From Escherichia coli (lineage in GTDB: Bacteria; Pseudomonadota; Gammaproteobacteria; Enterobacterales; Enterobacteriaceae): a stretch of DNA of 64,000 nt. The notes beneath the pieces were generated by a model that saw only the letters and a program-made list of their open reading frames with translations, was not told the DNA's origin and did not search any database. Every line of letters begins with the position of its first letter. The first letter of the stretch is position 1. The stretch lies in assembly GCF_030384885.1 (NCBI RefSeq), contig NZ_CP128613.1; one strand, 5' to 3'. Made by a program: the position numbers and the translations under genes. This document shows positions 12,141 to 12,567 of the stretch, in pieces.

Positions 12141-12422
12141 CCGCGCATACAAAACGGGTGGTAAAAAAAGCAAACGATTATCCGGCGATCATAGCGGCTT
12201 TTTCAACCGAAGTTTGCTGCTTTTTTCTCTTTTATTGTCTTGACGATGAAAAACCAGGCAATTGATGCGCAAACGTTATCGTCGATGCGCAAGATTGCAG
12301 CGTTATCGAGCCGCATACCGTTCAGGATTGCGATAAAAAATCGTCTGAGATGACAAAAATATTGCGGCTAAAAAGTATACTTTTACACTGGCGAAGAAAC
12401 GCCGGTGACATACAATTAAAGC

Positions 12423-12566
12423 ATCAACACCAACCGGAACCTCCACCACGTGCTCGAATGAGGTGTGTTGACGTCGGGGGAAACCCTCCTGTGTACCAGC
12501 GGGATAGAGAGAAAGACAAAGACCGGAAAACAAACTAAAGCGCCCTTGTGGCGCTTTAGTTTTGTT
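12423..12566 (+). ncRNA. ryjA: Candidate small RNA convergent with soxR (K-12 ryjA position)
   Basis: TACAAT -10-like hexamer at 12411-12416; intrinsic terminator hairpin 12534-12560 plus U-tract; location matches the recalled ryjA site between soxR and ghxP; boundaries approximate. Confidence 0.4.
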
Positions 12567-12567
12567 C
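12534..12567. terminator. Bidirectional intrinsic terminator shared by soxR and the convergent sRNA
   Basis: Stem ACTAAAGCGCC/GGCGCTTTAGT with loop CTTGT; U-rich tracts on both sides; overlaps the soxR stop codon. Confidence 0.7.

Follow-up and report, generated by a model that had tools for sequence, protein, structure and literature searches.

The gene for the small RNA SraL (RyjA) and its terminator, tail to tail with soxR, in an Escherichia coli genome

What is encoded between ghxP and soxR in Escherichia coli, and does the product act on soxR, which it faces tail to tail, or elsewhere? We take up this question in a 64,000-nt stretch of E. coli DNA (hereafter the window; NCBI RefSeq assembly GCF_030384885.1, contig NZ_CP128613.1), for which a preliminary description made from the letters alone had proposed a small RNA (sRNA) at the ryjA position, convergent with soxR. 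Here, we assign the feature with high confidence to SraL (RyjA), a regulatory RNA of 141 nt that acts in trans. The feature, an sRNA gene together with a probable bidirectional terminator common to soxR, is already known: SraL/RyjA was discovered in E. coli in 2001 by Argaman et al. and Wassarman et al. (both as cited in PMC3753932), and E. coli RyjA has an A as its 5' nucleotide and is visible on northern blots (PMC12956327).

The identification is based on an Rfam scan and on an alignment to K-12 ryjA, two checks that the preliminary description had itself named, and both bore out its proposal. The scan of the whole window returned RF01408 (sraL) at 12423-12563 on the plus strand with 153.3 bits (E 1.1e-34), against a curated gathering score of 39 bits, and the match is to the full model (positions 1-142 of 142). 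The window sRNA is identical at 141 of 141 positions to the K-12 ncRNA ryjA (b4459), with 5 differences in 120 aligned bases of the flanks. The gene thus runs from A12423 to 12563, the 3' end being the same in the Rfam match and in the K-12 annotation, and its 141 nt agree with the transcript of "roughly 140" nt first estimated. In K-12 MG1655, ryjA is annotated at 4277926-4278066 and soxR at 4277469-4277933, convergent and with an 8-nt overlap, and the gene order yjcE-ghxP-sraL-soxR-soxS-pdeC, with sraL between ghxP and soxR, is common to K-12 and the window. No further RNA family was detected in the intergenic region by an Rfam scan of 11950-13150 at permissive E-values.

Of 5426 complete E. 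coli genomes, 5420 contain the 401 nt around the locus. The best match to this region is that of strain 2013C-4282 (NZ_CP027579.1), which is 100% identical; its PGAP/RefSeq record annotates soxR and no ncRNA between ghxP and soxR, where the curated K-12 record (NC_000913.3) has one. To judge from RefSeq/PGAP records, most annotated E. coli genomes therefore give no sign of SraL.

To follow the gene beyond E. coli, species-representative genomes were scanned once with a pattern consisting of two conserved blocks of the RNA. The scan returned 101 loci, 99 of which are sraL homologues (75-100% identity); the remaining two, in an archaeon and in a Gemmatimonadetes MAG, are chance matches. In this set CCGGAACCTCC and GGGGGAAACCC cannot vary, being fixed by the pattern, which will also have missed more divergent members. 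The 99 loci come from Escherichia, Salmonella, Citrobacter, Enterobacter, Klebsiella, Raoultella, Kosakonia, Buttiauxella, Cedecea, Leclercia, Lelliottia, Trabulsiella, Atlantibacter, Phytobacter, Shimwellia, and other genera. Two records with unexpected labels, "MAG: Bacillota bacterium" (with an sraL 100% identical to that of E. coli) and "Chryseobacterium sp. 18061", hold typical enterobacterial sraL-soxR loci and probably represent binning or assembly contamination of public records.

How does the RNA end, and what does this mean for soxR? On the plus strand, the terminator scan finds an intrinsic terminator at 12532-12563, made of a hairpin (12532-12562) with a 13-bp stem (6 G-C pairs) and a 5-nt loop, CUUGU, followed by the U run TGTTCATCTT; the predicted energy of the hairpin is -18.4 kcal/mol. 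The preliminary description had placed the terminator at 12534-12567, so that its hairpin is real and its coordinates were a few nt off. Among the 99 orthologues, 96.1% of cells in the stem are paired, with compensatory changes in 2 of the 13 pairs, and the 9 nt downstream of the hairpin hold at least 5 T in every case (99/99). SraL transcription would thus end at this hairpin and U run.

A G+C-rich hairpin flanked by an A tract and a T tract reads as a hairpin with a U run on both strands. The same hairpin on the soxR strand (12522-12562, minus), followed by UUUGUUUUCC, is the probable soxR terminator, with a predicted fold of -30.4 kcal/mol (z -5.5); the hairpin alone, at -19.0 kcal/mol, folds as well on this strand as on the plus strand. 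In 88 of the 99 orthologues, the A-rich tract that precedes the stem on the plus strand and encodes the U run of the soxR strand contains 5 or more A in 9 nt, and the sraL Rfam model weakly matches the minus strand over the terminator part (23.7 bits). The simple terminator scan did not call a terminator on the minus strand. Taken together, these observations suggest that the hairpin probably also terminates convergent soxR and is hence bidirectional.

The soxR coding sequence (154 aa, 12556-13020, minus strand, from the ORF list and the soxR annotations of K-12 and 2013C-4282) reaches into this hairpin, with its TAA stop codon (12556-12558) lying in the 3' arm of the stem. As the preliminary description had stated, the two genes are convergent, the terminator overlaps the stop codon, and the 3' end of the sRNA covers the last codons of soxR; the overlap between the annotated SraL end and the coding sequence is 8 nt (12556-12563), made up of the stop codon, the codon for Asn154, and 2 nt of that for Gln153.

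Among the orthologues, soxR lies convergent and directly downstream of sraL in 98 of 99 loci. Citrobacter sedlakii NBRC 105722 has the sole locus without a soxR match, within the approximately 1.6 kb of downstream sequence examined. Counting from the position aligned with nt 141 of E. coli SraL, and with soxR translated from its N terminus, the soxR stop overlaps the sRNA in 18 of the 98 loci, lies 0-3 nt beyond the sRNA end in 29, 4-35 nt beyond it in 34, and more than 35 nt beyond it in 17; the value of -30 for one locus (L058) looks like a frameshifted soxR and was disregarded. The 8-nt overlap of the E. coli type accounts for 10 of the 18 overlapping loci (10/98), found in Escherichia spp., the Citrobacter amalonaticus group, and two others, and Salmonella diarizonae has a gap of 31 nt between the sRNA end and the soxR stop. 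From this distribution, the tail-to-tail sraL-soxR layout is ancestral and stable, and the entry of the soxR frame into the hairpin is a lineage-specific detail.

In light of this layout, might SraL be a cis-antisense partner of soxR, besides or instead of acting in trans? RNase III would then cut a duplex of approximately 39 nt and couple the levels of SraL, made under sigma-S, to the stability of the soxR mRNA 3' end, or the other way round. The overlap is real, with 8 nt of coding sequence and, if soxR transcripts end after the hairpin, about 39 nt of perfect complementarity, and the intermolecular duplex is predicted at -69 kcal/mol compared to about -18 to -19 kcal/mol for each hairpin alone. 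The conserved convergence, with the soxR stop at most 35 nt from the sRNA end in 81 of 98 loci, and the strong binding of SraL by ProQ, often a partner of structured or antisense RNAs, are in keeping with such a role. However, the complementary region is locked in stable hairpins in both RNAs, the coding sequence overlaps the sRNA in a minority of lineages, and the soxR stop lies >35 nt away in the 17 loci counted above. In addition, tail-to-tail genes often have one bidirectional terminator in common, an arrangement that needs no regulatory meaning. In a Salmonella RNase III mutant, SraL appears as a single larger band, and a cut was proposed in the terminator that overlaps the soxR terminator (PMC2190706); this overlap, possible RNase III cleavage there, and the antisense idea itself were already raised by Viegas et al. 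2007 (PMC2190706), but the literature that we found has no report of SraL affecting soxR. From the modelled duplex, antisense contact between SraL and the soxR 3' end, which the preliminary description had put forward, is physically possible, and we regard a cis-antisense function as unlikely. A more specific proposal is that the common terminator does more than pack two genes closely, in that SraL and the soxR mRNA 3' end form an RNase III- or ProQ-dependent duplex. Through it, sigma-S-driven SraL of stationary phase would tune how stable the soxR mRNA is or, in Escherichia, how translation terminates at a stop codon buried in the duplex. We find this slightly less likely still; if true, it would tie SoxRS, the superoxide response, to the general stress response.

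We return to SraL as a trans-acting RNA, and to whether its body is an RNA or a message. The Rfam structure of sraL was mapped onto the orthologue alignment, where 94.8% of cells are paired by standard pairs and 10 pairs carry compensatory changes; none of 500 shuffles reached the observed value, and sliding the partners by 1-3 columns reduced pairing to 39-54%. Helix 1, which encloses the 5' domain (12424-12430 paired with 12465-12471), has compensatory changes in 4 of 7 pairs and 95.8% of cells paired, and the helix 6 hairpin (12487-12492 paired with 12499-12504) has them in 4 of 6 pairs, with 94.6% of cells paired. Helix 3 is weak (76% paired). Helices 2 and 5 show no variation because the search pattern fixed them, and helix 4 does not vary either (the pattern held only the G of its GUC), so that these three are uninformative. 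The compensatory changes in the alignment support the Rfam fold of SraL.

In this fold, a long-range 5' helix would surround the tig seed (see below) and be followed by two short hairpins, after which a conserved, purine-rich, and mostly single-stranded linker would lead into the terminator hairpin. The most conserved stretch of the linker, GAAAGACAAAGACCGG (12511-12526, plus strand; SraL nt 89-104), is invariant or nearly so in the 99 orthologues and is single-stranded in the mapped structure except for GAC at 12515-12517, which forms helix 4. This stretch formed no part of the search pattern. The probable tig seed (12447-12456) is conserved to a lesser degree.

The transcript could instead be a small mRNA, or have a dual function, as an ATG-initiated ORF of 26 codons (12458-12538; MRCVDVGGNPPVYQRDREKDKDRKTN), the C-terminal part of a 62-aa ORF at 12350-12538, lies wholly within the RNA. 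Against this, its start column holds ATG in only 23 of the 99 orthologues and CTG, ACG, CCG, or another non-start in 51, its length where the start is present varies from 15 to 39 codons through frame-shifting indels, no Shine-Dalgarno sequence is evident upstream, and conservation in SraL tracks helices and not codons. The coding reading, to which we give very little credence, was rejected on conservation; SraL RNA is non-coding.

The -10 hexamer TACAAT at 12411-12416 (plus strand), which the preliminary description had pointed out, is confirmed by direct reading of the sequence and is conserved in the 99 orthologues. It takes forms such as TACACT, TACAAT, TAGACT, TAGAAT, and CACAAT at a fixed distance from +1; A12412, A12414, and T12416 are invariant, giving the pattern TAnAnT (CAnAnT in Klebsiella and Raoultella). 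An A/T-rich discriminator, TAAAGC (12417-12422), separates the hexamer from the start, the -10 ending 6 nt upstream of A12423, and +1 is a purine in the orthologues (A in 27, G in 72). The -35-like element CTGGCG (12388-12393, plus strand), 17 bp upstream of the -10, is degenerate; 42 of the 99 orthologues have CTGGCG or CTGGCA in this column and another 11 have CTTGAA, with G12391 invariant. A sigma-70 scan did not call the sraL promoter, because this -35 matches TTGACA at only 3 of 6 positions.

The lack of a sigma-70 call agrees with the description of sraL as having an RpoS promoter, a type with a degenerate -35 (PMC3753932). In Salmonella, RpoS binds the sraL promoter in vivo (>100-fold ChIP enrichment), and the promoter, studied also with lacZ fusions, is rpoS-dependent in stationary phase and after osmotic shock (PMC3753932). 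E. coli RyjA is listed among RpoS-regulated, starvation-induced sRNAs (bioRxiv 10.1101/2024.06.20.599902). Judged by its sequence, the promoter in the window carries the conserved features of the RpoS type: its -10 follows TAnAnT, its discriminator is A/T-rich, and its -35 is degenerate. Sigma-S RNA polymerase would initiate at A12423 from these elements.

That there is no independent plus-strand gene at all, the hairpin being a mere soxR terminator and TACAAT a chance hexamer, would account for the missing sigma-70 call and for terminator-like sites being as frequent as in shuffles (2 observed, 2.0 expected), but it can be dismissed as next to impossible, being refuted by an Rfam match that includes 108 nt upstream of the hairpin, by the annotation of the RNA in K-12 and identity to it, by conservation and covarying helices in that upstream part in 99 species, by a -10 kept at its distance from +1, and by published northern blots and RpoS ChIP. 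Simple promoter and terminator scans do not by themselves demonstrate an excess over chance, and the Rfam E-value, the K-12 identity, and the conservation and covariation in 99 species do.

What, then, would SraL regulate? In Salmonella, SraL represses tig, and compensatory mutations made in sraL and tig on the chromosome, together with gel shifts, proved that the two RNAs pair (PMC3753932). According to the account in that paper, pairing involves segments of 7 and 3 bp, located a few nt upstream of the Shine-Dalgarno sequence, and the 5' part of SraL (PMC3753932). In the window, the probable tig-pairing seed is CACGUGCUCG (12447-12456, plus strand; SraL nt 25-34), for which the tig 5' UTR of E. 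coli K-12 offers a complement of 7 + 3 bp in CGAGCACUGUG at -29..-19 (local dG -16.4 kcal/mol). From its fit to the published description, this is probably the same site. Within the family, only the part with Escherichia, Salmonella, Citrobacter, and Enterobacter conserves the seed.

SraL has also been reported to pair with the rho leader and to block premature Rho-dependent termination (Silva et al. 2019, as related in PMC6582626 and PMC12360218). A local scan gave candidate duplexes between SraL nt 34-58 and -254..-230 of the E. coli rho leader and between SraL nt 71-104 and -150..-123, the conserved stretch GAAAGACAAAGACCGG being able to pair with the latter region with a dG of about -20. 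In these local scans, 37 of 60 dinucleotide shuffles of SraL paired as well as or better than SraL with tig, and 17 of 60 with rho. When SraL was paired in full with either leader by global RNAduplex, only whole-length duplexes resulted, which are meaningless and no better than those of shuffles. Pairing with tig and rho is thus neither confirmed nor refuted by the sequence alone, because the best energies are indistinguishable from those of dinucleotide shuffles.

The published biology completes the picture. SraL stability depends on Hfq, on polyadenylation by PAP I, on PNPase, and on the degradosome (PMC2190706), and in stationary-phase Salmonella about half or more of the sRNA reads bound by ProQ come from SraL (PMC8136791). 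Its rho-independent terminator with a U tail is the usual 3' module for Hfq and ProQ binding, the binding itself being known from the literature. With Hfq and/or ProQ, SraL would pair in trans with other mRNAs: with the tig 5' UTR, immediately before the Shine-Dalgarno sequence, resulting in less trigger factor, and with the rho leader, preventing premature Rho-dependent termination. RpoS dependence, Hfq and ProQ binding, regulation of tig and rho, and polyadenylation-dependent decay are all taken from the literature, mostly on Salmonella, in which target regulation was demonstrated, and we infer that this picture holds in the present E. coli strain.

Several other features of the window were noted. 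The motif GCAAACG(A/T)T, which we take to resemble a PurR operator half-site, has only 7 matches in the 64 kb, 3 of them in the ghxP-sraL intergenic region (12060-12310), at 12127-12138, 12170-12181, and 12269-12280; two degenerate copies were seen by eye near 12074 and 12296. The sole minus-strand sigma-70-like call (TTGAAA-18-GATAAT, 12206 to 12177) is probably the promoter for ghxP, a purine transporter gene, and its -10 is overlapped by the copy at 12170-12182. Beyond soxR, soxS (13106-13429, plus strand) and pdeC (13432-15027, minus strand) are convergent with 2 nt between their stop codons, as in K-12; this leaves no room for separate terminators, and the two transcripts must overlap. 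Rfam matches above the gathering score were further obtained for a lysine riboswitch (56871-57067, plus strand, 99.5 bits), the enterobacterial sRNA STnc430 (54827-54976, plus strand, 71.7 bits), and two naRNA4/REP-type elements (42993-43063 and 5099-5170, both on the minus strand, 76.9 and 70.8 bits).

As a discovery, the locus carries little weight, since SraL/RyjA has been known since 2001 and has an Rfam family, a K-12 annotation, and two published targets. Its practical use is threefold: an sRNA gene proved recognisable from raw sequence by the author of the preliminary description, standard RefSeq/PGAP records of E. coli were shown to omit SraL, and the tail-to-tail layout with soxR was documented across the Enterobacteriaceae, together with the lineage-specific nature of the coding-sequence overlap.

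Compared with known systems, the closest is SraL/RyjA itself (RF01408, b4459), with the same sequence, boundaries, fold, -10, terminator, and convergence with soxR; no difference from K-12 was detected in the RNA, and only the flanking DNA and the host strain differ. As in bidirectional intrinsic terminators between convergent genes in general, the same G+C-rich hairpin is preceded by an A tract and followed by a T tract, but here one partner is a regulatory RNA, and the stem in E. coli contains the stop codon of the other. The sraL-soxR pair also resembles gadY-gadX, in which a cis-antisense, RpoS-dependent sRNA lies tail to tail with a regulator gene, overlaps the 3' end of its convergent mRNA with complementary sequence, and RNase III is implicated. 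Unlike in that pair, the overlap between SraL and soxR is essentially just the terminator hairpin, and the established SraL targets, tig and rho, are regulated in trans. Finally, the published action of SraL on rho, as presented in PMC6582626 and PMC12360218, belongs to the same class as that of the sRNAs that counter Rho-dependent termination in leaders, such as DsrA, ArcZ, and RprA on rpoS, with the difference that the target of SraL is rho itself.
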